64,000 bases of DNA, taken from assembly GCA_903864935.1 (NCBI GenBank), contig CAIPHT010000006.1:37129-101128 (forward strand). The letters are read 5' to 3'. The notes under the pieces were generated by a model. The model saw only the letters and a list, made by a program, of their open reading frames with translations, had not been told where the DNA came from and searched no databases. The first letter of the stretch is position 1; the number at the start of each line of letters is the position of its first letter. Of this stretch, positions 2,477 to 61,311 are shown in pieces. This DNA comes from Candidatus Vogelbacteria bacterium (GTDB lineage Bacteria; Patescibacteriota; Minisyncoccia; Phycocordibacterales; XYD1-FULL-46-19). The translations under genes and the position numbers were made by a program.

Positions 2477-3469
2477 TCAGTAAAAGTAATCCTCCTCTTC
2501 GTCATTTCCTTCATCCTCAGGAACCGGAGGCAGACTCTCAGTTGGGACAACGACGACGGGCTTAGCCGGGAGGGGTGGATATATCTCCACAACCAGATGA
2601 CCATTTTTCTCGTGATTGACACGAAGTTGCAGGTCCTTAACACGCTTCTCAACACTACCCAGCTCTAAAGCCTTAGCTGCTCGCCGATGAGCAAGGGTTG
2701 GCAGGTGATCCCAACCGACAATCTTGGCAAGATGCTCCATGTGGGGGTATTTTGTCCCACCCGGTAAACGTAGGAGTGTCTCGACAACAACGTGCAAGGG
2801 CATCCCTGAATCAGCCAATCTGGCTAGTACCGGCTGAGCGCGTTTAAGCCGAGAGAATCTTTCGAGGGAGCGTCCATCTTGTGGGTAAGTCGACAGGCAC
2901 ATATCAATATACCAGGCCAGATCGTTCATCTGCCCCTGCAATTGCTTGTTTCGATTCAACTCGACCCAGCAAGCATCCCTGACGAACTCTTCGTCTCGGA
3001 GGTCAAAGCAGAAGCGAGCCCCACGAGGAAAATCTTGACGCACATCTTTGGTTTGGAGTTCCTGGCGAGTTCGTCGGTAATAATGTTTGTTAACAGTTAT
3101 ACCGAAGGTCCTATTCTTCCAACCAGAGACAGTTTTCTCGGCCAGCTCGTTTAGCTTAGACCAAACAAGCGGTGCGACAATCCGATACTGTGCCTCAGAA
3201 AGTCGAAAGAGTTTGTGCCGAGTATTCGGTCCAGCATTACTCCGCCGGTATGGTCGAGATCGCCAGAAGCCAATCTCACAAAGCAAGGCCTCGTTTGTCC
3301 TCCCAACTCGAGAATCTAGAGATCTTTCGCCTGGGCCAATTATTGCAATAACACTTAAGGCCCCTTTCGGATTTTCGGCTTGAGAGACAGACCCGTTACT
3401 GTAAATCTCCCACACAAAACGAGCGTGCCGTTGAACTTTAACGATGTCGTCAGCAATCTGCTTAAGCAT
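2477..3469 (-). CDS. Hypothetical protein in a GC-rich island, with an acidic C-terminal tail (EDEGNDEEEDYFY). A central segment weakly resembles wHTH plasmid replication initiators of the Rep_3 type.
   Basis: 330 aa. Perfect SD (gaaaggaggtgaa) 8 nt before the ATG. Local GC is about 52 %, against about 44 % in the flanks. The motif RHKLFRLSEAQYRIVAPLVWSKLNE resembles the Rep_3 N-terminal wHTH pattern; this was aligned by eye only. Confidence 0.45.
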   Translation of the reverse strand: MLKQIADDIVKVQRHARFVWEIYSNGSVSQAENPKGALSVIAIIGPGERSLDSRVGRTNEALLCEIGFWRSRPYRRSNAGPNTRHKLFRLSEAQYRIVAPLVWSKLNELAEKTVSGWKNRTFGITVNKHYYRRTRQELQTKDVRQDFPRGARFCFDLRDEEFVRDACWVELNRNKQLQGQMNDLAWYIDMCLSTYPQDGRSLERFSRLKRAQPVLARLADSGMPLHVVVETLLRLPGGTKYPHMEHLAKIVGWDHLPTLAHRRAAKALELGSVEKRVKDLQLRVNHEKNGHLVVEIYPPLPAKPVVVVPTESLPPVPEDEGNDEEEDYFY

Positions 3470-3590
3470 AATTCACCTCCTTTCGAGAGTGTGTTGTAGT
3501 TCACAAAGACCTAATTTTTCCTACCCCCAACTTACCATAAATTCAATTTTTCTGGCAATGGAAAAGCGCCACCCCAAGGGGCGACGCTTG

Positions 3591-4829
3591 TCAAGAGTCC
3601 AAACTCTTCTCGAGGATATCAAGAAGTTTTTGCTCTGTTGATGGAGACAAAGGAGGATTTGCTCTTATCATTACCTTTGCCTTAGTGACAGAAGAACTTT
3701 TCTTTCTCCCTGTGAAAATCAAGGTGTCTTCGAGGCCTGGCAAGACTAGTTGTTTAGGGAGAAGGCAGGGAACCCTTTTTACCCTAACCATCACACCCCA
3801 GCGATAGTACGGGCCAGACGGCGCAACGTAGTGGCAACACTTTTCTACTGGGCAGAACTGGCAAGGGTCACGATAGCCAACCGGCCAGTCTTCCAGTTTG
3901 AATTTTCGCGATGGAGGGGCTTTAGGAATGACTCTGTCCTCGCAAGAATTCTGAAAGTGATCAGCACATAGGGTGCGAGACAATACCCAAAGAGCAGGAT
4001 TTATCGCTAAATGGTCAAAGCCATTTCCAACCATAAACCATTGCGACCAACGGGCAACCAAGTCCGTTATTGTCTCACTGACTCTAAAGGCAATCTGACC
4101 TTTCCAATGATGCATTGCACCCCGTCCGCCAGGTTCATAGGGTTTAGCCAGAGAAAACTTCACAATCTTGGTTCCCTGAAGCAACCGAAGAGCGTGAAAG
4201 TCGATGGGCAATGGAGTAGCAAACACAGGAATCAAGCCAAAAGTCTGAAGCCAAATCGTAAACAACGAGAAAATCTTGCGTCTAATACCTTTCAAACCTT
4301 TAGATTTGCCGACTTCCCTGTAGTCTACTCGAGAAAAGGCTTCTTCAAAATCCTCAACACAGTTGAAGACATTAAGGACATTCCCGTCCCAGACTTCTTG
4401 AATTACTCGAGCGTTGTGTCTCCACGACCGAGCAAAGTCTCGATACTTTGGCCCCATCTTACCTACACCAATTTCTAAGCCGAGAGCCAATAGAATTTCT
4501 CCAGTTACGTCACTGAACAACTCACAAATTCTCTCCTCGGTCCACGACTCAATAATCCTTCGTGGCTCAAAGAGATCGGGATGAACAAGCGCCATTTGGT
4601 CAAGCCAACGAACAGGATCGTCCGAGACCATGCCTCCACGCATTGTTATCGACGCGAAGAACAGGAAATTCGCTCTGGCCCTTGGGTCTTTGGGCAAATT
4701 GACAAAACGGCTTTCGGGCAAGACAACATCATCAAACACCCCCTCCTTCTTTTCCCACGCTTTTTGAAGGGCGGAGAAAACTCGATAAGCACGAGTCTCG
4801 TCAACGACGATACGGTTTTTCTTTTCCAT
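3591..4829 (-). CDS. Hypothetical protein with a Cys-rich C-terminal region (six Cys, including C-x2-C-x4-CC). First gene of the GC-rich two-gene unit.
   Basis: 412 aa. Its SD (gaaaggaggtgaaaa) is identical to that of the downstream gene. High local GC. I recognise no known family. Confidence 0.45.
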   Translation of the reverse strand: MEKKNRIVVDETRAYRVFSALQKAWEKKEGVFDDVVLPESRFVNLPKDPRARANFLFFASITMRGGMVSDDPVRWLDQMALVHPDLFEPRRIIESWTEERICELFSDVTGEILLALGLEIGVGKMGPKYRDFARSWRHNARVIQEVWDGNVLNVFNCVEDFEEAFSRVDYREVGKSKGLKGIRRKIFSLFTIWLQTFGLIPVFATPLPIDFHALRLLQGTKIVKFSLAKPYEPGGRGAMHHWKGQIAFRVSETITDLVARWSQWFMVGNGFDHLAINPALWVLSRTLCADHFQNSCEDRVIPKAPPSRKFKLEDWPVGYRDPCQFCPVEKCCHYVAPSGPYYRWGVMVRVKRVPCLLPKQLVLPGLEDTLIFTGRKKSSSVTKAKVMIRANPPLSPSTEQKLLDILEKSLDS

Positions 4830-4931
4830 TTTTCACCTCCTTTCGGGTAGGTTGTTGTGGATCACTTGATCCGATTGTAGAGACCTTTCCTTCCTCAAGC
4901 TAACAGATTGCCTGTTATTGTCAAAAACTAA

Positions 4932-4971
4932 GGTAATAAACCATTCACGACCGTGAATGAATTGCTACCTT
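4932..4971 (+). repeat. 40-bp imperfect palindrome, family A copy 1 (ggtaataaaccattcacgaccgtgaatgaattgctacctt).
   Basis: Outer GGTAA..TTACC arms and inner CATTCACG-a-CCGTGAATG arms. Copies at 5557 and 30551. Confidence 0.6.
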
Positions 4972-4997
4972 GATATAAATTATCTATAATTTAAGAA

Positions 4998-5561
4998 ATG
5001 AAAAAGATTTCTAGAATAAATCACAAAGAAGTTATTTTAAGAACTATTGGCCTAGCTGGTTTACTTGCGGTCTCGGCTGTTGCCCCTGGGGTTTTGGTTC
5101 TTTATAAAAAACACAAGAAAATCCAGTATGAAAAACAGTCCAGAAATTATATAAACAGGGCAACGCAAAATCTAATCAAAGATGGTTTTGTCGAAATAAA
5201 AATTAACGAACAGGGAATAAAGTGCCTCCGTCTAACCAATCGTGGTCAAGAAGCCCTAAAGGAATACGCTTTGGCTGGGCTAGAAATCAAAAAACCTTGG
5301 CGTTGGGATCACAAATACCGGGTAATTATCTTCGATATTAAGGAATTTAAACGAGGAACGAGAGACAAACTAAGGCACTGGCTAGAACATCTTGGCTTTG
5401 TTCGCCTACAAAACAGTGTCTGGGTTTATCCCTATGATTGTCGAGAGGTCGTGATCTTACTTAAAGCTAATTTTAAAATAGGGAAAGAAGTCCTATATAT
5501 GACAGTTGATTCTATAGAAAACGATAAGTGGCTCAAGAAAGAATTTGGTCTGGCTAGGTAA
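4998..5561 (+). CDS. Short PaaX-like protein: N-terminal hydrophobic segment, a wHTH, and a Cas2/PaaX-middle-domain-like beta-alpha-beta core.
   Basis: 187 aa. The segment WRWDHKYRVIIFDIKEFKRGTRDKLRHWLEHLGFVRLQNSVWVYP matches the PaaX pattern W.GKW...L...GF.......P and the Cas2-like strand-helix-strand layout. TATAAT lies 7 nt upstream of the ATG with no SD. The gene is flanked by 40-bp palindromes at 4932-4971 and 5557-5596. Confidence 0.5.
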   Translation: MKKISRINHKEVILRTIGLAGLLAVSAVAPGVLVLYKKHKKIQYEKQSRNYINRATQNLIKDGFVEIKINEQGIKCLRLTNRGQEALKEYALAGLEIKKPWRWDHKYRVIIFDIKEFKRGTRDKLRHWLEHLGFVRLQNSVWVYPYDCREVVILLKANFKIGKEVLYMTVDSIENDKWLKKEFGLAR

Positions 5562-5596
5562 CAAACCGTTCACGGTCGTGAATGGTTTACTACCTT
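5557..5596 (+). repeat. 40-bp imperfect palindrome, family A copy 2. Overlaps the stop codon of the PaaX-like gene.
   Basis: ggtaacaaaccgttcacggtcgtgaatggtttactacctt. Confidence 0.6.
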
Positions 5597-5648
5597 TCTT
5601 TTTATTAAGAATTGTGATAATTTGCCAACAGAAAGGAGGTGATTAACA

Positions 5649-5984
5649 ATGTTTTTTAAAAGAAAAGCTGTTTCTGTACAACTTAAAGAGGGTGACGAGA
5701 TCCGGGTTCATAACAAGGGGATGTCTTGGGCCGTCTACTTTTATCGCTTTAACCGTCGCATAGGCGTTTGGGAGGAAATACGTTGTAGGAGCTCATTCCT
5801 TCGAATGGAAGTACCTCTCGGGGGGAGTAAGGAGGACCAAATCGCTGCAGCGAAAGGGGTGGTCGAGACCATCGCCGGATTCGCTGGTTATACCCTCTCC
5901 ACAGGGCCTAGCGAAAGGGTTGGGTGTGAAAGCGATGATCCTATTGTTCATGGTTGGGTAGGGGAACCAGTTTACAGGGTCTAA
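5649..5984 (+). CDS. Hypothetical small protein.
   Basis: 111 aa. Strong SD (gaaaggaggtga) 8 nt upstream. Followed by a rho-independent terminator at 5994-6030. Confidence 0.4.
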   Translation: MFFKRKAVSVQLKEGDEIRVHNKGMSWAVYFYRFNRRIGVWEEIRCRSSFLRMEVPLGGSKEDQIAAAKGVVETIAGFAGYTLSTGPSERVGCESDDPIVHGWVGEPVYRV

Positions 5985-13677: not shown

Positions 13678-13729
13678 AGCGAGGTGTTCTCGCGCAAAAG
13701 AAAAGGGCTCAAAAAGGGAGGAAAAACCC
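13678..13729 (+). promoter_or_regulatory. Conserved leader of small-protein cassette 1: hairpin aGCGAGgtgttCTCGCg, an A-rich tract, then the SD aagggagg.
   Basis: Near-identical to 14060-14112. Confidence 0.45.
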
Positions 13730-13966
13730 ATGAGCAACGATGATAACTTTACCCCGCCGTTCATCCCGTTCGGGGAAACAAATTCGGCTGACCCAAAAGG
13801 GGAGACCGATATCCTCAGACCCGGCAGTGTATTTGGCCCTCCGGGGTCAACAATCGGCCAGCTTCAAGCTGACAGGTTCCAGCGGATTCTCGGTGGAGAT
13901 CTTTCCCGAGAAGAATTAAAGGGAACGGACATCGAGAGATTCCGGAGGGCGAAGCATGGATTGTGA
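13730..13966 (+). CDS. Small hypothetical protein (cassette 1, 78 aa).
   Basis: SD aagggagg 9 nt upstream. Leader and terminator are shared with cassette 2. GC-rich island. Confidence 0.35.
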   Translation: MSNDDNFTPPFIPFGETNSADPKGETDILRPGSVFGPPGSTIGQLQADRFQRILGGDLSREELKGTDIERFRRAKHGL

Positions 13967-13983
13967 TGCTTTGTCTTTCCCGG

Positions 13984-14023
13984 CCCCCGACACGCACCAG
14001 CGTTGTCGGGGGCAGTTTTGTTT
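13984..14023 (+). terminator. Rho-independent terminator of cassette 1.
   Basis: CCCCCGACA-cgcaccagcg-TTGTCGGGGG followed by cagTTTTGTTTG. Confidence 0.6.
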
Positions 14024-14059
14024 GACTATTTTCATTACTAAGCGTTTAATCAATTTAGA

Positions 14060-14112
14060 AGCGAGGTGTTCTCGCGAAACAAAAAAGCTCAAACAAGGGA
14101 GGAAAACAACCC
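14060..14112 (+). promoter_or_regulatory. Conserved leader of small-protein cassette 2.
   Basis: Same hairpin AGCGAGGTGTTCTCGCG, A-rich tract and SD as 13678-13729. Confidence 0.45.
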
Positions 14113-14484
14113 ATGAGCAATAGTATGAAAGTAGTTACGTTCGGAAGGAGTATCCTTTCCGGCGTCATCTTTTGCGAGATAGGAGGAACAGTTGCTTTCG
14201 CCAAAAAAGCGGGCCCCCAACCTAAGGAGGGAGAAACCTGGGAGGTAATACCTCACCGGAACGGGGATGACGGAACTTACTTCCTCCTTGAACTCCTTAA
14301 GAAAATTGAGGAGGGCCCTAAGTCCCCCTCTGTCGAAGAGATCCTTGGGACCATCAACTTCGACGGCAATGGCCCCGGTCCCGAAGGGCCACCTGAACTG
14401 CCGGAGGACTTCGACGCCGGTGGCGTTATCGAACCGAGTGACCGCCCCTGGGATGGTGGAGTTCACCGACGCTTACCAATCTGA
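14113..14484 (+). CDS. Small hypothetical protein (cassette 2, 123 aa), with a hydrophobic N-terminus and a Gly/Pro/acidic-rich C-terminus.
   Basis: SD aagggagg upstream. Preferred over the overlapping minus-strand ORF 14089-14466 because of the SD and the paralogous cassette structure. Confidence 0.35.
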   Translation: MSNSMKVVTFGRSILSGVIFCEIGGTVAFAKKAGPQPKEGETWEVIPHRNGDDGTYFLLELLKKIEEGPKSPSVEEILGTINFDGNGPGPEGPPELPEDFDAGGVIEPSDRPWDGGVHRRLPI

Positions 14485-14502
14485 ACCCGGTTTCTTTCGT
14501 TG

Positions 14503-14541
14503 CCCCCGACACGCATCAGCGTTGTCGGGGGCAGTTTTGTT
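14503..14541 (+). terminator. Rho-independent terminator of cassette 2.
   Basis: CCCCCGACA-cgcatcagcg-TTGTCGGGGG followed by cagTTTTGTTT. Paralogous to 13984-14023. Confidence 0.6.
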
Positions 14542-14650
14542 TATTCAAAAAACCCTTATTTGTCGAAGTCCAACTTCGTAAACTATACAAAACTGTTAAT
14601 AAGTGACAAATATTTTTATTTTTGGCTATTTTTTGTTACTATATTAGACA

Positions 14651-25619: not shown

Positions 25620-25890
25620 AATTTATGCCATAGTAAAACTACACAGCTTAAGGGCTCACTTGCCACAAGTTCTAGGACAGAAACTTAATCTTGTGCAAAG
25701 GAGGAGAAGACGGAGGGAAGACCTCTGAGATGAAAAAGGTCTTACATTGGGCAAGACGGTAGGTATGACAGATGGGAAGACTGCGGTTGTTCCCCGCACC
25801 CCTGTCACTGGCAAGCTGAATGGGCCGAGCTGGATAGGGGTGTCACAATAGTGGCATCCCGCCTTTTTATTTAAACTTATCCCCATTTTT
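25620..25890 (+). ncRNA. Candidate structured non-coding region. The strand is unknown and no family is assigned.
   Basis: About 270 nt lies between a strong terminator and the REP element, with no credible ORF. Several local hairpins, for example AAGACCT-ctgagatgaaaa-AGGTCTT. I see no convincing match to RNase P, SRP, tmRNA or 6S RNA conserved motifs. Confidence 0.2.
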
Positions 25891-25896
25891 GTATAC

Positions 25897-25919
25897 TATG
25901 CGAGATTGGATATCGCACA
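25897..25919 (+). repeat. REP hairpin (tatgcgaGATTGGATAtcgcaca).
   Basis: 7-bp stem and 9-nt loop. Identical core at 26640, 30888 and 49459, and an inverted copy at 26105. Confidence 0.7.
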
Positions 25920-25949
25920 ATAAGGGTTTTTATGATAATATAATGACCA

Positions 25950-26624
25950 ATGAGGGAGAAGCCCACGGAAGACTACATTTATCACATTTTTAATCGCGGA
26001 GTAGACAAGCGAGAAATTTTTTCTGATGACAGTGATCGTCAACGTTTTTTGGCCTGTCTTTATCATTTTAATGACACAGCTCAAGTGAGAAATATCGATC
26101 GCGTGTGCGATATCCAATCTCGCACAAATGACGACCGGGATAAATTAGTGGAGATACTAGCCTTTACCCTGATGCCTAACCACTTCCATCTCTTAGTAAA
26201 ACCTCTGATTGAAGACGGTGTTTCTGAATTTATGAAAAAAATTGGTATTGGCTACACTCATTACTTTAATATAAAAAACGAACGATCAGGAAGTCTCTTT
26301 CAAGGTAAATATAAATTTGTAAGGATAGAAGACGATGAGCAGCTAAACTATATACCTTATTACATCCACTTTAATCCAGCCGAACTCGTTGATTCGGGAT
26401 GGAAAGAAAAAAAAGTTCAGGATAGTCAAAAGGTTTTTGATTTTTTAAAATCTTATAGATGGTCAAGTCTTCGAGATTATCTCGGCCAAGACAATTTCTC
26501 TCAAATTATAGACAAAGGGGTCCTGACAGACTACCTAGGGAGCCCCGAAGAATTTGAGAAGGAAATCTCTGCTTGGCTCAAAGAAATGGGCTCAATAGAC
26601 CATACAAATCTGTGGATAGAGTAG
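25950..26624 (+). CDS. IS200/IS605-family Y1 (HUH) transposase of the RAYT type.
   Basis: YHIFNRGVDKREIF, HUH motif NHFHLLV, then GYTHYFN....SGSLFQGKY with the catalytic Tyr. 224 aa, which is typical RAYT length. Confidence 0.8.
   Translation: MREKPTEDYIYHIFNRGVDKREIFSDDSDRQRFLACLYHFNDTAQVRNIDRVCDIQSRTNDDRDKLVEILAFTLMPNHFHLLVKPLIEDGVSEFMKKIGIGYTHYFNIKNERSGSLFQGKYKFVRIEDDEQLNYIPYYIHFNPAELVDSGWKEKKVQDSQKVFDFLKSYRWSSLRDYLGQDNFSQIIDKGVLTDYLGSPEEFEKEISAWLKEMGSIDHTNLWIE
26105..26127 (+). repeat. REP hairpin copy in inverse orientation, embedded inside the RAYT coding sequence.
   Basis: tgtgcgaTATCCAATCtcgcaca, encoding DRVCDIQSRTND. Confidence 0.6.
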
Positions 26625-26639
26625 CCAAAATATCCTTAT

Positions 26640-26662
26640 TGTGCGAGATTGGATATCGCACA
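26640..26662 (+). repeat. REP hairpin (tgtgcgaGATTGGATAtcgcaca).
   Basis: Perfect 7-bp stem; see 25897. Confidence 0.7.
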
Positions 26663-29456: not shown

Positions 29457-29534
29457 AAAACTTTAATTTATTCAAAAGGAAAACCCACCGTGTGTCAGAC
29501 GGAGGGTTCTCCGAATTCACACGGCGGGTGGGGA

Positions 29535-30359
29535 TCAATACGCCTTAGTTTCCAGGCAGTGACGAACACCGTAGTCTGCCTCTTTCGAGTGGGTCTCCCC
29601 AAGGCTAATGGCGATCGCCAGGGCACGCTCAGGATCTTTTTTGGCTAGTCTCAACAGCATTTTCGCCAAGTTGGGGCTCTGGTGCGGACATGCGAACATG
29701 ACTGTGCCAAGAGTGTCAGCCATAAGCTCTGGCGCCAAAAACCAGAAAACCTCAGGAAGATTTAGAAAGTGTTCATTCGTCTTGGGATTACATGTCGCTG
29801 AAATACCCGCCTTGGTGAGAAGAGCAAGGGCCTCCGCTAAATTAAGGCCCTTGGCCGCATGGGCAATTCGCGTAAGCTCCACCGCCTGATTTGCCATTTC
29901 TTGGCGGGCCATCGCTTCCTTCTCTCTCTCATTCTTTCCCTTAATATACCAATAAATGGGGAGGGCCATAAAGTAGAGAACGAGCACCTCTGTGACAGAG
30001 AACAGGGCAACCCACAGCGGAGTCGGAAGGTTCGTGATCCCGAAGAAATAGATAAACGGGACAAGAACAACCCCAGTAAAGGCCAAGATCGCTTCTCCAC
30101 GAAAAATAAAATTCTTCGCGTCGGGGTCAAGCGCATTCCAAAACCCTTTCAACTCTTTCCGCACCGTTGCCCACTTCTGGCTCAACTTCTTGCCGTAAGC
30201 AAGGTTGACCATAGAAGCAAGGGCGATCAAGGCACACGGCAGCATGACCTTAAAGGGTTGGGACATCATCGCCGAGGCCAACATGGACAGGAGAAGGCAG
30301 ATGGCCAAAACCACAACTTCAAGTCTCTTCGCGTTCATGACAATGTTCCTTTTCTTCAT
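29535..30359 (-). CDS. Hypothetical multi-pass membrane protein.
   Basis: 274 aa with at least four predicted TM helices. It sits in the insertion between dnaK and dnaJ on the opposite strand. Confidence 0.4.
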   Translation of the reverse strand: MKKRNIVMNAKRLEVVVLAICLLLSMLASAMMSQPFKVMLPCALIALASMVNLAYGKKLSQKWATVRKELKGFWNALDPDAKNFIFRGEAILAFTGVVLVPFIYFFGITNLPTPLWVALFSVTEVLVLYFMALPIYWYIKGKNEREKEAMARQEMANQAVELTRIAHAAKGLNLAEALALLTKAGISATCNPKTNEHFLNLPEVFWFLAPELMADTLGTVMFACPHQSPNLAKMLLRLAKKDPERALAIAISLGETHSKEADYGVRHCLETKAY

Positions 30360-30550
30360 CCGCGGGGAATGCTCAGGGCCGATTTCTACGCAGGGTAGAC
30401 CTAAGTCACCTTCGCCTGCAACAGAGCAAGCTACGGCGAACCAAGGAGGGGGTTGCCCTAATCAGCTGATTTCAAGAGTGCCTTACTGAATTTCAGACAC
30501 TCACTTTCTGCTTCTAATTATACTCTCATTTTACTGCCCTGTCAAGCCAT

Positions 30551-30590
30551 GGTAATCATCCATTCACGACCGTGAACGATTTGTTACCTT
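30551..30590 (+). repeat. 40-bp imperfect palindrome, third copy of family A (ggtaatcatccattcacgaccgtgaacgatttgttacctt).
   Basis: Same architecture as 4932-4971 and 5557-5596. Confidence 0.6.
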
Positions 30591-30616
30591 GTTCGAAACC
30601 TTTCCCCCAACAAAAG

Positions 30617-30649
30617 AGCCCGCCATACGGAGGCGAGCTCCATTGGCGG
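30617..30649 (-). terminator. Terminator hairpin E1, a paralogue of 30946-30978.
   Basis: cccgcca..ggaggcgagctcca..ttggcgg, followed on the minus strand by CTTTTGTTGG. Confidence 0.5.
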
Positions 30650-30677
30650 ACTAGCGGTTTGGCAGTGTCCTTTCCGT

Positions 30678-30794
30678 TCAACAAAAGGCCTTAACCAGAA
30701 AGTACAGCACCATCCCTCCGACGACGAGCACCATCAACCACTGTGGCGGACCAATCGGAACAGGGTCGTCATCCCAATATCTTTTCTCACTCAT
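30678..30794 (-). CDS. Possible 38-aa single-TM micro-protein.
   Basis: SD aggaga 6 nt upstream. Hydrophobic core LMVLVVGGMVLYFLV. The terminator hairpin E1 at 30617-30649 lies downstream on the minus strand. Confidence 0.25.
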   Translation of the reverse strand: MSEKRYWDDDPVPIGPPQWLMVLVVGGMVLYFLVKAFC

Positions 30795-30887
30795 GGCGAA
30801 TCTCCTCTAAGTTGCCATCGTTCTGCTTTCTATTATACACCTTTCTATTCTCTCTGTCAAGCCCAACTCTTGTCTAAAAAACCTTAG

Positions 30888-30910
30888 TGTGCGAGATTGG
30901 ATATCGCACA
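30888..30910 (+). repeat. REP hairpin copy (gtgtgcgaGATTGGATAtcgcacac, 9-bp stem).
   Basis: Identical to the RAYT-flanking REPs. Confidence 0.7.
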
Positions 30911-30945
30911 CTTTAGTAAAATGTAGATAAAAATATAAACAAAAG

Positions 30946-30978
30946 ATCCCGCCAACAGAGACGAACTCCATTGGCGGG
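30946..30978 (-). terminator. Terminator hairpin E2.
   Basis: cccgccaacagagacgaactccattggcggg matches E1 at 28 of 32 positions. T-rich on the minus strand. Confidence 0.5.
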
Positions 30979-30995
30979 GGAATAAGCTGATTATC

Positions 30996-31211
30996 TTATC
31001 TCCTGGATCTCTCCCACTCCTCTCTGGTAAAGCCAAAAGGTATGTAGGCCGGAGCAAGAGATGAGGAAGTGCTTCTTGAGGGCCCGTGGGGTAAAATCAG
31101 ACGGGCACACCTCTCAGCGTCACCCTGTGGTTGGCGGGGTGTCTCCACCCTGATCTTGACGGATCCATCGTCTGGAACACAGCAATTATATCCACCGTTT
31201 AGGTCAGCCAT
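30996..31211 (-). CDS. Small hypothetical protein (71 aa, contains a CC pair).
   Basis: SD agggag 9 nt upstream on the minus strand. Terminator E2 downstream. Confidence 0.35.
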   Translation of the reverse strand: MADLNGGYNCCVPDDGSVKIRVETPRQPQGDAERCARLILPHGPSRSTSSSLAPAYIPFGFTREEWERSRR

Positions 31212-31327
31212 GATAAAATTCTCCCTAGGGTTAGATGTTCACACTCTGTCTGTACGATAGCATTTTTTATATTATTGTCAACCCGACCCTTGTTCATCCT
31301 TAAAAACATAGTATAATCAACATCATT

Positions 31328-32449
31328 ATGCCCAAAGATTATTACAAAACTCTAGGTGTGGAGAAGGGGGCCTCGAAGGAGGAGCTCAAGAAAGCCTTCC
31401 ATAAACTCGCCCACAAACATCATCCTGACAAACAGGGTGGCGATGAAGCGAAGTTCAAAGAAATTAACGAGGCCTATCAAATTCTCTCAGACGACAATAA
31501 GCGCGCGCAATATGACCGCTTCGGCGAAGCGGGAACTAATGGCGGATTTGGTGGAGGACAACCAGGGGGCGGGCAAGGTGGAGGCTTCGGCGGATTTGAT
31601 TTCTCGGGCTTTCAAAATGCTAATGGCGGACAAGGTTTTGAATTTGATCTCGGTGATATCTTCGGCGAAATGTTTGGTGGCGGCGGCGGACGCGGTCAGG
31701 TACGACGTGGACGCGATATCTCTGTCGATATTCAGATTAGCTTCAAAGAGGCGGTCTTTGGTGTAGAGCGCAATATTTTAATCAATAAAATTAGCGAATG
31801 TGATACTTGTCATGGCTCTGGTGCGGAGGCTGGCTCACAAATGAAAAAATGTGCCACTTGTGGCGGCAAGGGTAAGGTCAACGAAACCCGTCGTTCCATC
31901 TTCGGCACCTTCCAATCTTCCCACGAATGCCCCGACTGTCATGGCAAAGGCGAAGTCCCAGACAAGAAATGCAAGACCTGCCGTGGCGAAGGTGTCTATA
32001 ACAAGCAAACAAATATTAAAGTTGCTGTTCCCGCTGGCATGGATGCCGGCGAGATGATACGTCTCACTGGACAAGGCGAAGCGGTTGCCGGTGGACAAGC
32101 CGGAGATCTTTATGTGAAAGTTCATATCGAGAAAGATAATATTTGGAAGCGAGTGGGTAATGACCTCACAACCGAAATTAAAATTAAATTAACAGATGCG
32201 CTCTTAGGTTCTGACTACAATCTCGAAACACTCGATGGCCCATTAACGCTTAAAGTCCCGGCCGGCCTCACCTATGGCGAAATATTGCGTGTGAAGGCGA
32301 AGGGGGTACCGGCACGTTCCGCCTCCGCCAGAGGCTTCGGCGAGACAAAGCGAGGAGACCTACTTATCCGCGTCACTTTTCCAACACCAGCCAAACTCTC
32401 CAAGACGGCTCGCAAAGCTATTGAGGATCTTCAGTCTGAGGGCCTCTAG
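31328..32449 (+). CDS. dnaJ: Molecular chaperone DnaJ.
   Basis: J-domain with HPD (KKAFHKLAHKHHPDK), a G/F-rich linker, four CxxCxGxG zinc-finger repeats, and a C-terminal domain. Confidence 0.9.
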   Translation: MPKDYYKTLGVEKGASKEELKKAFHKLAHKHHPDKQGGDEAKFKEINEAYQILSDDNKRAQYDRFGEAGTNGGFGGGQPGGGQGGGFGGFDFSGFQNANGGQGFEFDLGDIFGEMFGGGGGRGQVRRGRDISVDIQISFKEAVFGVERNILINKISECDTCHGSGAEAGSQMKKCATCGGKGKVNETRRSIFGTFQSSHECPDCHGKGEVPDKKCKTCRGEGVYNKQTNIKVAVPAGMDAGEMIRLTGQGEAVAGGQAGDLYVKVHIEKDNIWKRVGNDLTTEIKIKLTDALLGSDYNLETLDGPLTLKVPAGLTYGEILRVKAKGVPARSASARGFGETKRGDLLIRVTFPTPAKLSKTARKAIEDLQSEGL

Positions 32450-32521
32450 ACATAAGCTCCCAATTATGATATAAGATGGAGAGAGGAGCTATCCTGACAA
32501 CAGGAGAAAGGAAACCCAACC

Positions 32522-32680
32522 ATGCTTCTGACTGTTGTGGAATTGTTGGCAATTGTTTTCTTGTCCCTAGGAATCTATGTTCTGCTCTGCTGGATAAGAA
32601 AGGACAGCAAGGAAAAGAGGGAACAGAAAAGGCAAGAACAGCTCCACAGAGGAGCAAGTATGCCAAAGACTTACGACTAA
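32522..32680 (+). CDS. Possible 52-aa single-TM small protein.
   Basis: SD aggagaaagg upstream. TM helix LLTVVELLAIVFLSLGIYVLLCW. Followed by terminator D2. Confidence 0.3.
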   Translation: MLLTVVELLAIVFLSLGIYVLLCWIRKDSKEKREQKRQEQLHRGASMPKTYD

Positions 32681-32693
32681 CCTTAGCCACACC

Positions 32694-32762
32694 ACCCGCC
32701 GGCGCCAAACGGAGACCCTCCGTCTGGCACACGGCGGGTTTTCTGTTTTTTCAAAATTACCC
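32694..32762 (+). terminator. Double-hairpin, probably bidirectional, terminator. Member D2 of a three-copy family.
   Basis: cccgccggcgcc...cggagaccctccg...ggcacacggcggg followed by TTTTCTGTTTTTT. Related copies at 29470-29530 and, inverted, at 49503-49552. Confidence 0.55.
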
Positions 32763-32807
32763 CGACCTATTTCCCATACTTATAATTATAACCTTATGTA
32801 CAAAATC

Positions 32808-32834
32808 AGACGGCCGTCCAAAAGTGTACATAAG
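32808..32834 (+). repeat. 27-bp direct repeat, left copy (agacggccgtccaaaagtgtacataag). Contains the perfect palindrome GACGGCCGTC.
   Basis: 26 of 27 identical to 33403-33429, in the same orientation. Confidence 0.65.
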
Positions 32835-32850
32835 GTTCTTTATAAAATAT

Positions 32851-33372
32851 TTAGATAATATCTGTTTCTTTAACTTCAAAAAATTTCAGAAAAGGCGTAA
32901 TCTTCGCTACTTTCAAAAACTCAATAAATTCTGGGGGTAACGGGGCGGGGCCAAGCCAGACACTCTGTTGCATTTTTTTGAAACCGAGGGTTACCAATTC
33001 TATCCTCAACCAGTTTCTGTCTTTACGTCTCGCTTCGGGAATGTCAAAAGCTATAATAATCTTGCGGTCTGATTTTTTCTGTTTATTTTCTACTCTGGCA
33101 TATTTTTTAGAAAACTTACTTTTACCAAATTTATTCTTACCGAAAACTGTGATTTTCCAAAGACCATCTTTATTTTCAACCAAACCCTGCTTTTTCAGGC
33201 GAGACAGGGCAACCCTAAGAGAATTATCAAAAACTTTATCCTCCTTTATTTTAGAACCCTCCCCCAGATCATCAAAGCCAGGACCAACACGCCGAAGCAT
33301 CCGTTCTCTCAAACGGCTATAATTTCCGGGACTATTCGATAAGAAAAATAACAATTCTTCACCAATACTCAT
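32851..33372 (-). CDS. Short PaaX-like protein 2 (wHTH plus Cas2-like core), a paralogue of 4998-5561.
   Basis: RKIIIAFDIPEARRKDRNWLRIELVTLGFKKMQQSVWLGPAP gives the same pattern as the first copy. The N-terminal wHTH is LRVALSRLKKQGLVENKDGLWKIT. The start is moved to the ATG at 33372, because the ORF-track start at 33426 lies inside the flanking direct repeat. Confidence 0.45.
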   Translation of the reverse strand: MSIGEELLFFLSNSPGNYSRLRERMLRRVGPGFDDLGEGSKIKEDKVFDNSLRVALSRLKKQGLVENKDGLWKITVFGKNKFGKSKFSKKYARVENKQKKSDRKIIIAFDIPEARRKDRNWLRIELVTLGFKKMQQSVWLGPAPLPPEFIEFLKVAKITPFLKFFEVKETDII

Positions 33373-33402
33373 TTTTTTATTTATCACCATATTATCATAT
33401 TT

Positions 33403-33429
33403 GGACGGCCGTCCAAAAGTGTACATAAG
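33403..33429 (+). repeat. 27-bp direct repeat, right copy (ggacggccgtccaaaagtgtacataag).
   Basis: See 32808-32834. Confidence 0.65.
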
Positions 33430-33498
33430 ATAAATTAGACAGCTCTAGGCAAAACGAAGAGAAAAGAGTAACATTAAATCGGAAAGCAACTTCAACTC

Positions 33499-33795: not shown

Positions 33796-35130
33796 ATGGA
33801 AAGCTGGATCAAAACTAGGAACAAAATTATTGGTTGGAATTATCGAAATATTCTCAAACCAATTCTCTTCAAATTCGATCCTGAAGATATCCACGACTTA
33901 TTTATTAAAGTAGGGAATCTCCTTGGCCAAACATCCGCCACTCGATATTTAACAAGAGTTCTTTTTGATTATGAGAACCCAGTGCTTGAACAAGAAATTT
34001 TGGGCATCAAATTTAAAAATCCAGTTGGCCTCTCGGCTGGCTTCGACAAGAATGCAAGACTAACAAAAATCTTACCAGCTGTTGGCTTTGGTTTTGCTGA
34101 AGCGGGTTCAGTCACTGGCCGACCCTGCAAGGGCAATGAGGGGCGACATTTATGGCGCTTGCCTAAGTCTAAGAGTTTGATTGTTTATTATGGTTTGACG
34201 AATGATGGGGCAGAGGCCATCGCCAGGCGATTGTTAGAAGTCCAACTTCAAGTGAGCCCGAAGTTGGACTTCGAACAAGAAGCCAAGGGTCCGGAAGTTG
34301 GACTTCGGGCTCACTTGAAGTCCAACTTCCTACACAAGTCCAACTTCGTTCTGGGCATCAGTCTCGCCAAAACAAACGACCAAAAAACCATCACGACCGA
34401 AGCGGGGACTGCTGATTATATTAAAGCCTATGAAGCCTTCCTCAAGACCGACGTTGGCGACTACTTCACCATCAACATCAGTTGCCCCAACACCTTTGGT
34501 GGCGAACCTTTTGTTGAACCAGAACGTCTTGATTTGTTACTCTCCGCTTTTGCTAAAATAAGAGACGAAGAATCTGCCCGAGGACTACCCTCGGTCAAAG
34601 CGAAAGAAGTCCAACTTCAAGTGAGCCCGAAGTTGGACTTCGTGAGCGTCAACCGTCCACTTTTTATAAAACTCCCACCAGACCTAAGTGAAGAAAAACT
34701 AGACGCCATTATTGAACTGGTCAAGAAATATAAAATCAATGGCTTCGTCTCGACAAATCTCACCAAGGACCGAAACAATCCACTAATTAAAGATAAAATA
34801 AAGGATCCTTTGCCCACAGACAAAGGGGGATTGTCAGGTAAGATTGTTGAGGAGCTCGCAACCAAGCAAATTGAATATATTTATAAAAAAATAAAAGATC
34901 TCCCTCAGACCGAGAGACCTATCATCATTGGTTGCGGAGGCATCTTCACAGCCCAAGACGCCTACAACAAAATCAAAGCTGGCGCCTCACTCCTCCAACT
35001 CATCACCGGGATGATTTTCGAAGGCCCTCAAGTCATTAGCGAGATCAATCAAGGCCTGGTCACCCTGCTCCAAAAAGATGGGTATAAAAATATAAGTGAG
35101 GCGGTAGGGAAGTCTACTTGCCAACCATAA
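33796..35130 (+). CDS. pyrD: Dihydroorotate dehydrogenase (class 2-like), carrying three in-frame palindromic-element insertions that add about 100 aa.
   Basis: GFDKNA, NISCPNT, GGLSG, IIGCGGI...DA..KI.AGASLLQL.TG. It is 444 aa, against about 340-360 for typical DHODH. The extra peptides EVQLQVSPKLDF (twice) and PEVGLRAHLKSNF are encoded by the repeats at 34237-34273, 34292-34330 and 34606-34642. Confidence 0.8.
   Translation: MESWIKTRNKIIGWNYRNILKPILFKFDPEDIHDLFIKVGNLLGQTSATRYLTRVLFDYENPVLEQEILGIKFKNPVGLSAGFDKNARLTKILPAVGFGFAEAGSVTGRPCKGNEGRHLWRLPKSKSLIVYYGLTNDGAEAIARRLLEVQLQVSPKLDFEQEAKGPEVGLRAHLKSNFLHKSNFVLGISLAKTNDQKTITTEAGTADYIKAYEAFLKTDVGDYFTINISCPNTFGGEPFVEPERLDLLLSAFAKIRDEESARGLPSVKAKEVQLQVSPKLDFVSVNRPLFIKLPPDLSEEKLDAIIELVKKYKINGFVSTNLTKDRNNPLIKDKIKDPLPTDKGGLSGKIVEELATKQIEYIYKKIKDLPQTERPIIIGCGGIFTAQDAYNKIKAGASLLQLITGMIFEGPQVISEINQGLVTLLQKDGYKNISEAVGKSTCQP
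34237..34273 (+). repeat. 37-bp palindromic element, short form (GAAGTCCAACTTC-aagtgagcccg-AAGTTGGACTTC-g), in frame in pyrD.
   Basis: Perfect 13-bp inverted arms. Translated as EVQLQVSPKLDF. Confidence 0.75.
34292..34348 (+). repeat. Inverse-orientation copy of the 37-bp element plus an adjacent half-element, in frame in pyrD.
   Basis: cggaagttggacttcgggctcacttgaagtccaacttcc, then aagtccaacttcg. Translated as PEVGLRAHLKSNF..HKSNF. Confidence 0.7.
34606..34642 (+). repeat. 37-bp palindromic element, second direct copy, in frame in pyrD.
   Basis: Identical to 34237-34273. Confidence 0.75.
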
Positions 35131-35526: not shown

Positions 35527-35666
35527 CCGGCCCCCATTACTCCCGCCCGTACGGCGGCAACGAATCCCGTTGCTAGCAGTACGTGGCGGGATTTTTTGTT
35601 TAAGAAAAGGAAGTTAGAAGTCGGATCTGGCTACGCGAGATACGACTTCAGAACTTCCTAACAAAA

Positions 35667-35733
35667 GAAGTCCAACTTCAAGTGCCTGCCCCTCGAAGCC
35701 TTGGCGAAGTGGGGAGCCCGAAGTTGGACTTCG
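35667..35733 (+). repeat. Full-length (about 67 bp) palindromic element: GAAGTCCAACTTC-aagtg-cctgCCCCTCGAAGCCttggCGAAGTGGGGag-cccg-AAGTTGGACTTC-g.
   Basis: The 37-bp form in pyrD equals this element minus the inner roughly 30 bp. Intergenic, between the 35155 gene and the convergent tyrS. Confidence 0.7.
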
Positions 35734-46202: not shown

Positions 46203-47207
46203 ATGACAGAAAATAACAAAAAAATCTTATTATCCGGTGTTAAGCCAACGGGCCGTCCCCATATCGGCAATTATTTTGGGGCAATGAAACAATTCGTCGA
46301 TCTCCAAGATGAGTATCAAGGCTATGTCTTTATTGCCGATCTTCACTCTCTCACTACCACTCGTGACCCCAAACAACTCAAGCAAGACACCTTAGACCTC
46401 GTCATTGATTATCTCGCGATTGGCCTCGATCCTGACAAAGTTATTTTCTATAAACAATCAGAGGTTTTAGAGCATGCCAACCTCGCTTGGATCTTCAATT
46501 GTCTAACCACTATGCCTTATCTTGCTCGCGCACATGCTTACAAGGCAGCCGAGGCCAAAAATAAGGAGGCTAACCCCGCTGACAGCGGGGTGAATGTTGG
46601 CCTCTTCGATTATCCCATCCTGATGGCGGCCGACATCCTTCTCTACGACGCCGATGTTGTACCAGTCGGGGCGGATCAGAAACAGCATGTCGAAATTGCT
46701 CGTGATACTGCCGAGAAATTTAATTATCATTATGGCGAAACTTTCAAATTGCCGGAGCCTCTTATTATGGAAGGGGTTAAGACTATTGTCGGACTCGACG
46801 GCCAAAAGATGAGTAAGAGCTACAACAATACCATCCCGCTCTTTGCCGAAGAAAAAGAATTAAAGGACTTGGTGATGAGTATTAAGACCGACTCTCTTGG
46901 GGTCGAAGATCCAAAAAATCCCGAGGAGTGCAATGTCTTTGCTTTGCACAAACTCTTCACTCCCGCCGACCAGCTCGCCGAGATTAAGAAGCGTTATGTC
47001 GAAGGGGGGATTGGGTATAAAGAATCTAAAGACTTGCTCTTCGAGAGTATTAATAATTATCTCAAACCCTTACGCGAGAAGAGAAAAGAAATTGCTAAGG
47101 ACCCCGCTCGCGTTATCGACATTCTCAAAAAAGGCGCCGAGCTCGCTCGTGGCCGTGCCCAAGCCAAAATGGCTGACGTGAATACCAAAGTGGGGATTGA
47201 TTTATAA
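46203..47207 (+). CDS. trpS: Tryptophanyl-tRNA synthetase.
   Basis: HIGH-like SGVKPTGRPHIGNYFG and KMSKS. 334 aa. Confidence 0.9.
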   Translation: MTENNKKILLSGVKPTGRPHIGNYFGAMKQFVDLQDEYQGYVFIADLHSLTTTRDPKQLKQDTLDLVIDYLAIGLDPDKVIFYKQSEVLEHANLAWIFNCLTTMPYLARAHAYKAAEAKNKEANPADSGVNVGLFDYPILMAADILLYDADVVPVGADQKQHVEIARDTAEKFNYHYGETFKLPEPLIMEGVKTIVGLDGQKMSKSYNNTIPLFAEEKELKDLVMSIKTDSLGVEDPKNPEECNVFALHKLFTPADQLAEIKKRYVEGGIGYKESKDLLFESINNYLKPLREKRKEIAKDPARVIDILKKGAELARGRAQAKMADVNTKVGIDL

Positions 47208-47208
47208 A

Positions 47209-47240
47209 TTACCAATTTAGACGACCGTCAAAATTGGTAA
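47209..47240 (+). repeat. Palindrome TTACCAATTT-agACGACCGTCa-AAATTGGTAA between convergent genes. Probably a bidirectional terminator.
   Basis: 10-bp arms. The central ACGACCGTC core is shared with other repeat families in the window. Confidence 0.5.
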
Positions 47241-47307
47241 CATTTTTTGCAATTGTAAATTTTGTTACCAATTTTTGATAACGTTTTTTAGAAAAAAGAA
47301 AGCCGCC

Positions 47308-47694: not shown

Positions 47695-47865
47695 TAAGCT
47701 CTTGAGCCGATTAACAACCGGGCGAAACCTCAAGGCAAATGAGTTACAAATCAGGGTGGCACCGCGGAATTATCCGCCCCTGGGACTAGAAGTCCTTGGG
47801 GTGTTTTCTTTGTCTCGCCGAAGTCTTACCTAGACGAAGGCGGATAATTACAAAATTATTTATTA
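47695..47865 (+). promoter_or_regulatory. T-box riboswitch leader of aspS.
   Basis: Canonical T-box sequence AGGGTGGCACCGCGG at 47753-47767, followed by an intrinsic terminator (CCCCTGGGAC...GTCCTTGGGG TGTTTTCTTTG). A short stem I (CTTGAG...CTCAAG) encloses AACAAC, a candidate AAC (Asn) specifier. Confidence 0.6.
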
Positions 47866-49481: not shown

Positions 49482-49502
49482 ATTATAAAAATGTGGACAA
49501 AA

Positions 49503-49552
49503 GAAAAACCCGCCGTGTGCCCGACACGGAAGGCTTTTCCGTGGGGCACGCG
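49503..49552 (+). terminator. Double-hairpin bidirectional terminator D3, in inverted orientation relative to D2.
   Basis: cccgccgtgtgccc-gacacggaaggcttttccgtg-gggcacgcgacggg, between convergent genes. Confidence 0.5.
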
Positions 49553-60773: not shown

Positions 60774-61311
60774 ACCCAACCCGCCCGTCTGTTAAGCCAC
60801 CGGCAAGCCCGTCGTCTTGATGAGACGGGCTTTGCTATTACTTTAAATTATAAATAAGCGATTTTTAAGGCGAAAAGTGAAAAAAATCGAAAAATGACCA
60901 AATTTGGCTTTTTGAGGATCTTTAAGAAAATAGCGATATTAACACTTTTTGACGGCCGTCAGGAAATGTTAATAAGGGTTCGGGGTCAGAAATTTAGCGA
61001 TAAGTTGACAGAGAAGTGAAGAAAATATTTTTGGAAAATAATTTTTAGACGGCAGGGTAGGGGGTTTTAATATCGCAAAATGCATTGTCCGACGTCAAGG
61101 CACACATCGGACAATGCCCTTCGATTTTGCAACATTAAGCCTACGGCTTATGTCGCAAAATCTATGTTGTGCGACATATACCATAGTTATCCACAGCTAG
61201 CTAAAAGCCCTCCCCCTTTACAAGATTGACAATTTGTTTCACATTTGATAATCTATCTTTCAGACAAAGTGGTGAGCAACTAGTGCTTACCCAAACAAAA
61301 AGGAGAAGTCC

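Follow-up and report, generated by a model that had tools for sequence, protein, structure and literature searches.

RESULTS

A PaaX-like gene lies between two copies of one palindrome

In a 64-kb stretch of the Candidatus Vogelbacteria contig CAIPHT010000006.1 (hereafter the window), a PaaX-like protein of 173 amino acids (aa), referred to as paralogue 2, is encoded on the minus strand between two same-strand copies of the 26-mer GACGGCCGTCCAAAAGTGTACATAAG, which occurs exactly twice in the window (32809-32834 and 33404-33429). An earlier note on this DNA had described these copies as 27-bp direct repeats with 26 of 27 identical positions, lying about 595 bp apart in one orientation and framing a 173-aa PaaX-like paralogue. 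The gene was found as described, an exact search of the window bore out the orientation and the spacing of 595 bp, and since only the first base of the 27-mer differs (A versus G), the count of 26/27 is correct as well. Dinucleotide-preserving shuffles of the window, searched with up to 3 mismatches allowed, gave no match to the 26-mer. The repeats had thus been recognized, but it had been missed that each of them is one half of a larger imperfect palindrome of ~40-48 bp, in which outer TGTACA boxes stand around a GACGGCCGTC centre. Similarity between the two copies runs on to 60 nt at 78% identity (32775-32834 versus 33370-33429), and the GACGGCCGTC core occurs a third time in the window, at 60951.

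Mechanical calling of open reading frames (ORFs) placed the gene at 32851-33426 on the minus strand (191 aa), with a start ATG inside the repeat, as the earlier note had pointed out. All 35 aligned homologues start at the position of MSIGEELL, 18 codons after the mechanical start, thus the gene is 32851-33372 and its product has 173 aa.

The palindrome upstream of the gene is denoted U and the downstream one D (Table 1). In U, the gene-distal arm holds the 26-nt repeat, and the core, TTTGGACGGCCGTCCAAA, is perfectly palindromic over 18 bp, as read directly from the sequence. No outer TGTACA box is left in the gene-proximal arm (33385-33408), where the minus strand instead has a -10-like TATGATAAT (33391-33399); together with a TTGGAC hexamer at the centre of the site, this would make up a putative promoter of the gene. 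The D site begins 14 bp past the stop codon, between convergent genes and next to the dnaJ-side terminator; its two 24-nt arms (32790-32813 and 32814-32837) are 79% complementary, and no T run follows it in the sequence.

The protein combines a predicted winged helix with a Cas2-like domain

Paralogue 2 consists of a predicted N-terminal winged helix (~residues 1-96) and a C-terminal PaaX_M/Cas2-like domain (~residues 104-167). The Pfam model of the latter (PF20803, 'PaaX central Cas2-like domain') matched with 53 bits at a cut-off of 24, and that of the PaaX N-terminal winged helix (PF07848) matched weakly (14.1 bits, cut-off 24.8). No PaaX_C match was found by Pfam, and the protein stops after the middle domain. 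The PaaX equivalog TIGR02277 scored 20.8 bits at a cut-off of 264.55, and the Cas2 models gave weak matches too (18.6 bits for both PF09827, cut-off 23.8, and TIGR01573, cut-off 24.5). The other paralogue of the window, paralogue 1, is about 29% identical to paralogue 2, has the same two domains and a hydrophobic N-terminal segment, and matches the cas2 model TIGR01573 with 31.1 bits (cut-off 24.5) over model positions 1-39 only.

In the AlphaFold2 monomer model of paralogue 2 (pLDDT 80.7, pTM 0.45) a winged helix is predicted, and Foldseek ranked E. coli PaaX first among PDB structures (8a39; 131 columns, E = 3.8e-4), and the next ranks were taken by many Cas2 structures, which match the C-terminal domain of the model; 3exc and 3ui3 are among the fold matches. 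This domain retains the beta1 'FDI' aspartate and the 'Q-SVW' motif of Cas2. Pfam, NCBIfam, PADLOC and PHROGs gave only winged-helix and Cas2-like domains in the paralogue proteins, and no recombinase or transposase. A defence system was rejected, as the PADLOC scan returned only weak Cas2 matches, and so was a phage origin, with no relatives on IMG/VR viral contigs and weak PHROG matches only. The protein is most likely a truncated PaaX-like, site-specific DNA-binding regulator that is devoid of the ligand-binding C-terminal domain.

The two-site layout is common to the protein family

A protein search gave 88 close relatives, all of ~165-180 aa, with named sources in Paceibacterota/Parcubacteria lineages, e.g. 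Vogelbacteria, Liptonbacteria and Jorgensenbacteria, and a profile search of 1.84 billion representatives gave 3390 clusters (50% identity) at E <= 1e-10. The loci examined (denoted with the prefix L) numbered 80 from GTDB genomes and another 80 from metagenomes. Nearly every homologue has a ~40-bp palindrome 3-90 bp before its start and a matching one 12-130 bp past its stop; the latter often begins at the stop codon or only a few bases from it. For the counts, palindromes were accepted as sites when at least 14 of 20 arm positions were complementary and the centre had at most one mismatch from CGRYCG. Among 73 genome loci with both flanks, the U site was found in 50, the D site in 50 and both in 40, and for 77 distinct proteins, deduplicated over genomes and metagenomes, the corresponding numbers were 54, 61 and 48. 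As background, 570 kb of shuffled sequence contained 1 match, and the rest of the +/-4-kb flanks contained only 9 sites, versus about 100 that flank the genes. In the consensus half-site, ttAACAwwTTnnRCGR up to the dyad, hardly any variation is seen in the C/A of -12/-11 or in the CGRYCG centre, and the intervening positions differ between genes.

Several copies may be present per genome (five loci in one Jorgensenbacteria assembly, for example), and tandem paralogue pairs occur in L037 and L041. When 153 neighbouring ORFs were clustered, 112 clusters resulted, and no conserved neighbour or functional partner was found across the loci. The operator-gene-operator layout is common to a large uncharacterised protein family of the Paceibacterota, which are ultra-small bacteria. 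At one locus (L012, 4516-4991) the D site lies 475 bp past the stop, and two tRNA-like sequences on the opposite strand stand in between.

Sites are matched to their gene and covary with the protein

U and D sites of the same gene are 79% identical over 40 bp, versus 48% between genes, and the cognate D site was the best match for 34 of the 43 U sites. Syntenic orthologues with ~70% nucleotide identity over kilobases (L006/L012, L008/L009, L010/L011/L015/L034, L073/L075 and L066/L069/L080) differ strongly in their sites, yet U and D remain matched within each genome. Because U and D diverged in concert in such orthologues (seen in the first three of these sets), they are neither target-site duplications nor passive relics.

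Covariation was determined as mutual information between columns of the protein alignment and half-site positions in 77 gene-site sets. The top covarying pair (z = 15) was residue 116, the K/R of FDIPExx[K/R], and DNA position -4: K116 goes with G at -4 in 25 of 31 cases and R116 with A in 35 of 41, and the association is found in each of the four arms separately (Fisher p 4e-7 to 8e-6). Phylogeny was handled, as a partial correction, through 38 independent sister pairs. Residue 116 differs in 11 of these pairs and the base also differs in 10 of the 11, while the base differs in 2 of the 27 pairs with the same residue (Fisher p = 1.4e-6). Both window paralogues and the distant gene A of L037 keep the rule. 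Moreover, covariation links positions -5 to -7 to residues 120 and 127. In the model all three residues are in helix 113-128, i.e. helix 1 of the Cas2-like domain, and their spacing (i, i+4, i+11) places them on one face of this helix. Within the winged helix, covariation with the outer box (-14 to -19) is seen for residues 50, 53 and 54, which belong to its predicted recognition helix. Hence, given the covariation of residue 116 with position -4, the encoded protein most likely reads the palindromes as its cognate operators.

Proposed mechanism and role of the two sites

We consider it probable that each of the two repeats is a copy of the operator recognized by the very protein whose gene they enclose, within an autonomous accessory operator-gene-operator module; in the best-supported reading, this protein would be a mini-PaaX autoregulator whose cognate operators come as a pair. 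Dimerization through the Cas2-like domains would place the protein on the dyad of the ~40-bp palindrome, its two winged helices would read the outer boxes (here ATGTACA, ~11-19 bp away from the dyad), and the bases beside the CGRYCG centre would be read by residues 116, 120 and 127 in the first helix of the Cas2-like domain. As the U site would overlap the promoter of its own gene, negative autoregulation is most likely, as in E. coli PaaX; throughout the family, -10-like hexamers of the U sites cluster in or just past the gene-proximal arm. In 44 of 72 loci (61%) the next gene beyond the D site is oriented convergently, therefore D is usually no promoter operator. Its arms covary with the protein as the U arms do, which argues that D is a genuine binding site of the predicted kind. 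We speculate that D pairs with U in a loop of ~600 bp, or is a roadblock which insulates the unit from neighbouring transcription. Paceibacterota genomes would often hold several such units of differing specificity, and the present one may have arrived, or have been retained, within a 986-bp segment described below.

Several points weigh against the operator reading. Neither site was found in 10 of the 77 members under the fixed criterion, although several of the misses have odd centres (CCAATTGG or CTGCAGGTGCAG); one sister pair contradicts the K/G, R/A rule, and the covariation is corrected for phylogeny only in part by the sister pairs. A simple promoter scan called no sigma-70 promoter at the U site of paralogue 2, and a site after its own stop codon is rarely needed by a regulator. 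Furthermore, the dimer and its placement on the dyad are postulated, the structure model being a monomer with a pTM of 0.45, and the evidence for the operator reading is comparative throughout.

In a bolder version, which is conceivable but which we hold doubtful, the units would be no ordinary autoregulators but a large family of fast-diversifying self-bracketed modules, in which a Cas2-fold base reader binds both ends of its own gene, and a few sites elsewhere, and so loops or insulates this gene. The site pairs might then also be handles for gain, loss and exchange of the module, together with adjacent small accessory genes, among Paceibacterota genomes. If true, this would be a new type of chromosomal element, selfish or insulating, whose recognition follows a simple code (K116 to G, R116 to A).

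Paralogue 1 and further sites in the window

The earlier note had seen two paralogues in the window, each framed by a different repeat family, and this is indeed the arrangement, with a separate pair of palindromes around paralogue 1 (Table 1). Its U site sits in the divergent region common to the gene and ORF 3591-4829, and the proximal arm holds the -35 (TTGCTA, 4962-4967) of a TTGCTA-17-TATAAT promoter for the gene; its D site overlaps the stop codon and has a centre that is inverted relative to the U copy. Paralogue 1 is found in a block (2477-5984) of ORFs of 330, 412 and 111 aa beside leuS, without Pfam or PHROG match, which may be a strain-specific island.

Table 1. Coordinates of the paralogues, their palindromic sites and the variable segment in the window
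Feature	Position	Strand	Basis or description
Mini-PaaX gene, paralogue 2	32851..33372	-	ORF call, start fixed by homologues, Pfam PaaX_M 3.8e-14
Upstream palindrome U	33385..33432		Dyad 33408/33409; read from sequence and repeat analysis
Downstream palindrome D	32790..32837		Dyad 32813/32814; holds repeat copy 32809-32834
986-bp segment missing in relatives	32457..33442		blastn and alignment versus L085 and L084
Paralogue 1	4998..5561	+	187 aa; Pfam PaaX_M 2.2e-17, 63.4 bits
Paralogue-1 U site	4931..4970		AGGTAATAAACCATTCACGA/CCGTGAATGAATTGCTACCT (slash, dyad)
Paralogue-1 D site	5556..5595		AGGTAACAAACCGTTCACGG/TCGTGAATGGTTTACTACCT (slash, dyad)
Third paralogue-1-type site	30549..30591		80% identical to paralogue-1 U; no family gene nearby
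Orphan site	60936..60975		GACGGCCGTC centre, TATTAACA outer boxes; in a 0.5-kb non-coding stretch
Two overlapping orphan sites	47205..47272		47205-47244 and 47233-47272; dyads 47224/47225 and 47252/47253

A third site of the paralogue-1 type (30549-30591) lies 3 bp upstream of the -35 of a TTGACA-17-TATAAT promoter with 12/12 consensus positions (minus strand, 30545-30517), which faces ORF 29535-30359, and the site is a candidate regulon target. Its position beside a consensus promoter argues for a transcription-factor role, and at least one paralogue therefore probably has a target besides itself. A second 12/12 promoter of the same form is present at 30832-30860 on the minus strand. Both promoters are inside a 968-bp stretch, from ORF 29535-30359 to dnaJ, which is ~150-200 bp long in relatives and appears to encode small membrane peptides with a strong terminator after each.

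Beside the orphan site at 60936-60975, no promoter was called. The two overlapping orphan sites represent two further specificities, and the second of them nearly matches the sites flanking the homologue in L007. This pair starts at the trpS stop codon, which is the edge of a ~446-bp segment that is missing from relatives and carries a 117-aa ORF on the minus strand. A pseudogene by the orphan sites was rejected, as none was found by tblastn with both paralogues and six-frame reading of 30360-31330; the relatives' loci are also without family genes. TrpS itself (46203-47207) has 334 aa here and in one relative, and 327-328 aa in most relatives.

The unit is accessory in this genome, and a mobile cassette is unlikely

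Two independent relatives with 90% identical DnaJ (P0090 and P0091; loci L083-L086) are without 986 bp of the window, as seen by blastn, alignment and gene maps of the relatives' loci. The gene order there is dnaK-dnaJ-80-aa ORF-...-pyrD-tyrS, with the 80-aa ORF directly after dnaJ, and in a relative at 80% identity pyrD directly follows dnaJ. The segment comprises the gene of paralogue 2 with both of its sites, and also a 52-aa ORF (32522-32680, plus strand) with its terminator. Because it is missing from relatives with 90% DnaJ identity, the module is accessory here; the unit was recently gained or lost in this genome, and the 27-bp repeats are cargo rather than a product of insertion. A ~50-nt GC-rich terminator-like element, ~81-84% identical, is found after three different genes of the window (32692-32743, 29479-29531 in inverted orientation, and 49490-49525).

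At its ends the segment has an imperfect 12-13-bp direct repeat (CTCTAGACATAAG, 32444-32456, and CTCTAGGCAAAAC, 33443-33455; boundary repeat type CTCTAGNCANAA), of which the empty sites carry one CTCTAGGCAAAAG, and which may be an insertion footprint or simple microhomology. The 26-mer, TGTACATAAG and GACGGCCGTC are all missing from the empty-site loci L083-L088. The indel boundaries (32456/32457 and 33442/33443) do not coincide with the repeats, being ~335 bp beyond one of them and 13 bp beyond the second. As the repeats are missing from the empty site and off the boundaries, they are neither target-site duplications nor att sites. The left end of the 986-bp insert was also tried as a U promoter arm and rejected, 18/21 matches with a 2-nt gap being too weak.

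The earlier note had taken the gene and its repeats for a small mobile or duplicating cassette rather than a vertically inherited regulator, and had suggested looking for empty sites in related strains, which exist, with no repeat copy in any of them. In this explanation, which we judge unlikely, the repeats would be target-site duplications, or att- or attC-like recombination sites, for insertion and excision of a ~0.6-kb gene cassette. The absence of the segment from close relatives is what a cassette would predict, but without a repeat copy at the empty sites there was no target duplication, and on the left side ~335 bp separate the indel boundary from the repeat. Two strain-specific segments do have palindromes at or near an edge, in one case 13 bp from the right boundary of the present segment and in the other exactly at the trpS stop (47205), and the build of the sites, with arms on either side of a conserved 6-bp centre, is similar to that of recombinase core sites; gene-by-gene sites that covary with the protein, however, are not expected from a shared trans-acting recombinase, and the protein is without recombinase or transposase motif, with no integrase nearby. 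There are several copies per genome, and the closest homologues (72% and 61% identity) are in other contexts, flanking a TPR-MurJ block in two different ways, with these MurJ/TPR neighbours not found in the window, whereas many other members are syntenic at ~70% nucleotide identity. Solo and paired orphan sites exist as well. Pairs around short leftovers in L018 and L038 look like decay of former units, and the L018 case fits internal deletion, not precise excision. Integron attC sites in particular were rejected, as the D flanks do not fit RYYYAAC...GTTRRRY and no integrase is present.

What remains of the cassette is a self-contained ~0.64-kb unit that is not fixed in the lineage, of which the repeats are not mobility footprints. 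The suggested target-site or att-like duplications do not hold, given empty sites without the repeat, boundaries elsewhere, a family-wide layout and sites that covary with the protein. To oppose the cassette to vertical inheritance of a regulator was too strong, as many members are vertical and the protein is most likely a site-specific DNA-binding regulator.

Other explanations of the repeats

We find it similarly improbable that the sites function as RNA, i.e. that D is a hairpin serving as intrinsic or bidirectional terminator or as stabiliser and U a leader structure, perhaps bound or cut by the Cas2-like (RNase-like) domain. D sites begin 0-60 bp past the stop codon, 61% of the downstream neighbours are convergent, and the long perfect stems would fold stably; however, mismatches in the D sites show no excess of G.T (28) versus A.C (23), and a T run of at least 4 follows only 18 of 54 D sites. 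Some Cas2/VapD relatives are RNases (fold matches 3exc and 3ui3), but bases are kept regardless of pairing (the CA at -12/-11 and the CGRYCG centre), and the Rfam scan was negative. With the wobble, T-run and Rfam tests all negative, the terminator or RNA hairpin was rejected. As U overlaps promoter elements, at least part of it is probably not transcribed.

A relic of tandem duplication, with the D copy as the leftover 5' end (promoter and start) of a former second gene copy, is very improbable. The 60 nt at 78% identity do reach past the palindrome to the start-codon region, tblastn gives a faint echo of the first 19 codons downstream, and the tandem pairs of L037 and L041 are precedents. 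But D is the more complete palindrome of the two, the covariation holds in D arms alone, and the layout, with matched lineage-specific sites, is found in most of 77 diverse members, which independent relics would not give. D sites are neither lost in most orthologues nor neutrally decayed relative to U sites.

Least credible of all are REP-like selfish palindromes, spread by the RAYT-type Y1 transposase of the genome and beside the gene by chance, since, although a Y1_Tnp gene (25950-26621) and other palindromic repeat families are present in the window, the Y1 gene is flanked by another palindrome, TGTGCGAGATTGGATATCGCACA, and the family sites are specific to each gene and almost only at gene flanks (~100 vs 9 elsewhere).

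DISCUSSION

Comparison with known systems

The protein is neither PaaX proper nor a CRISPR Cas2, and resembles the DNA-binding core of PaaX. PaaX (E. coli W; PDB 8a39) likewise begins with a winged helix, which is predicted in the window protein, and continues with a Cas2-like middle domain, and it has a similar long palindromic operator with widely spaced outer half-sites at its own promoter, ~39 bp versus ~40 bp here. The E. coli operator, TGATTC-N27-GAATCA, is palindromic over ~39 bp, and PaaX represses by occlusion the promoter of its own gene (PMC9493321). Unlike PaaX, which has ~305-316 aa and a phenylacetyl-CoA-sensing C-terminal domain, the window protein is without this domain, neighbours dnaJ, pyrD and tyrS with no paa genes nearby, apparently reads a conserved CGRYCG centre with its Cas2-like domain, has a second operator after the stop codon, and belongs to a family of which genomes carry several copies with differing specificities.

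With Cas2 the C-terminal domain shares the ferredoxin-like fold. Duplex DNA is contacted by Cas2 dimers through basic residues that directly follow beta1, close to where residue 116 stands. In the present family, unlike in Cas2, a winged helix is fused to this fold, recognition appears to be base-specific instead of limited to the backbone, and nothing points to nuclease or integrase-accessory activity. No CRISPR array-like repeats were found in the window, and no cas1-like ORF in the maps of the regions inspected.

The REPtron, a RAYT gene with its cognate REP palindromes, is likewise a small gene bracketed by gene-lineage-specific palindromes with a few more copies elsewhere. It differs from the present unit, which has no HUH/Y1 motif, very few dispersed copies, and symmetric operators of the double-stranded DNA type with promoter overlap. 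The RAYT-like Y1 transposase gene at 25950-26621 is 70% identical to the Y1_Tnp that relatives conserve between rpsI and grpE. With TGTGCGAGATTGGATATCGCACA palindromes on both sides (25885-26662) and a third copy at ~30888 (30876-30910), it has the appearance of a classic REPtron, and copies related to TGTGCGAGATTGGATATCGCACA follow dnaJ or trpS in relatives. Integron attC cassettes and IS200/IS605 elements are also short single-gene units with imperfect palindromes and presence/absence variation; in contrast to these, the present unit has no integrase or TnpA, does not match the R''/R' attC consensus, leaves no repeat at the empty site and has different boundaries.

The apparent novelty is in the second operator after the stop, the apparent base readout by a Cas2 fold and the wide diversification of specificity. 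No description of the paired-operator layout, of Cas2-fold base readout or of such diversification was found in the literature, of which the coverage was incomplete.

Implications

Very few transcription factors can be recognised in Paceibacterota and other ultra-small bacteria, whose gene regulation is hardly known. Because each gene of the family bears two copies of its own site, the binding sites can be read directly from the genome, which would give a protein-to-site dictionary with a testable specificity rule. That a Cas2-fold domain may be able to read DNA bases, as the covariation suggests, bears on the relation between Cas2 and PaaX, and a second operator after the stop may provide looping or roadblock insulation in compact genomes. 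For annotation, the automatic start codon of paralogue 2 is wrong, and labels such as 'PaaX' or 'phenylacetate regulator' on genes of this family are misleading.

Other repeats and RNA elements in the window

A palindromic repeat of 36-38 nt, GAAGTCCAACTTCAAGTGAGCCCGAAGTTGGACTTC, is found at 34236-34334, 34605-34642, 35666-35733 and 14565. It is in-frame at least twice in the pyrD-like ORF 33796-35130, where it adds 'EVQLQVSPKLDF' peptides, and is also intergenic; the relative L085 likewise has a repeat of the GAAGTCCAACTTCAAGTGAGCCCGAAGTTGGACTTC type in pyrD. Local direct-repeat pairs of 50-52 nt are present within 13678-14542 (13974/14493 at 92% and 13678/14060 at 73%). Finally, the leader before aspS (47696-47800), which is conserved in the relatives L169 and L171, has a T-box-like GGGTGGCACCGCGG motif; the Rfam T-box model matches the 3' end only, with 26.9 bits and below the gathering score of 93.

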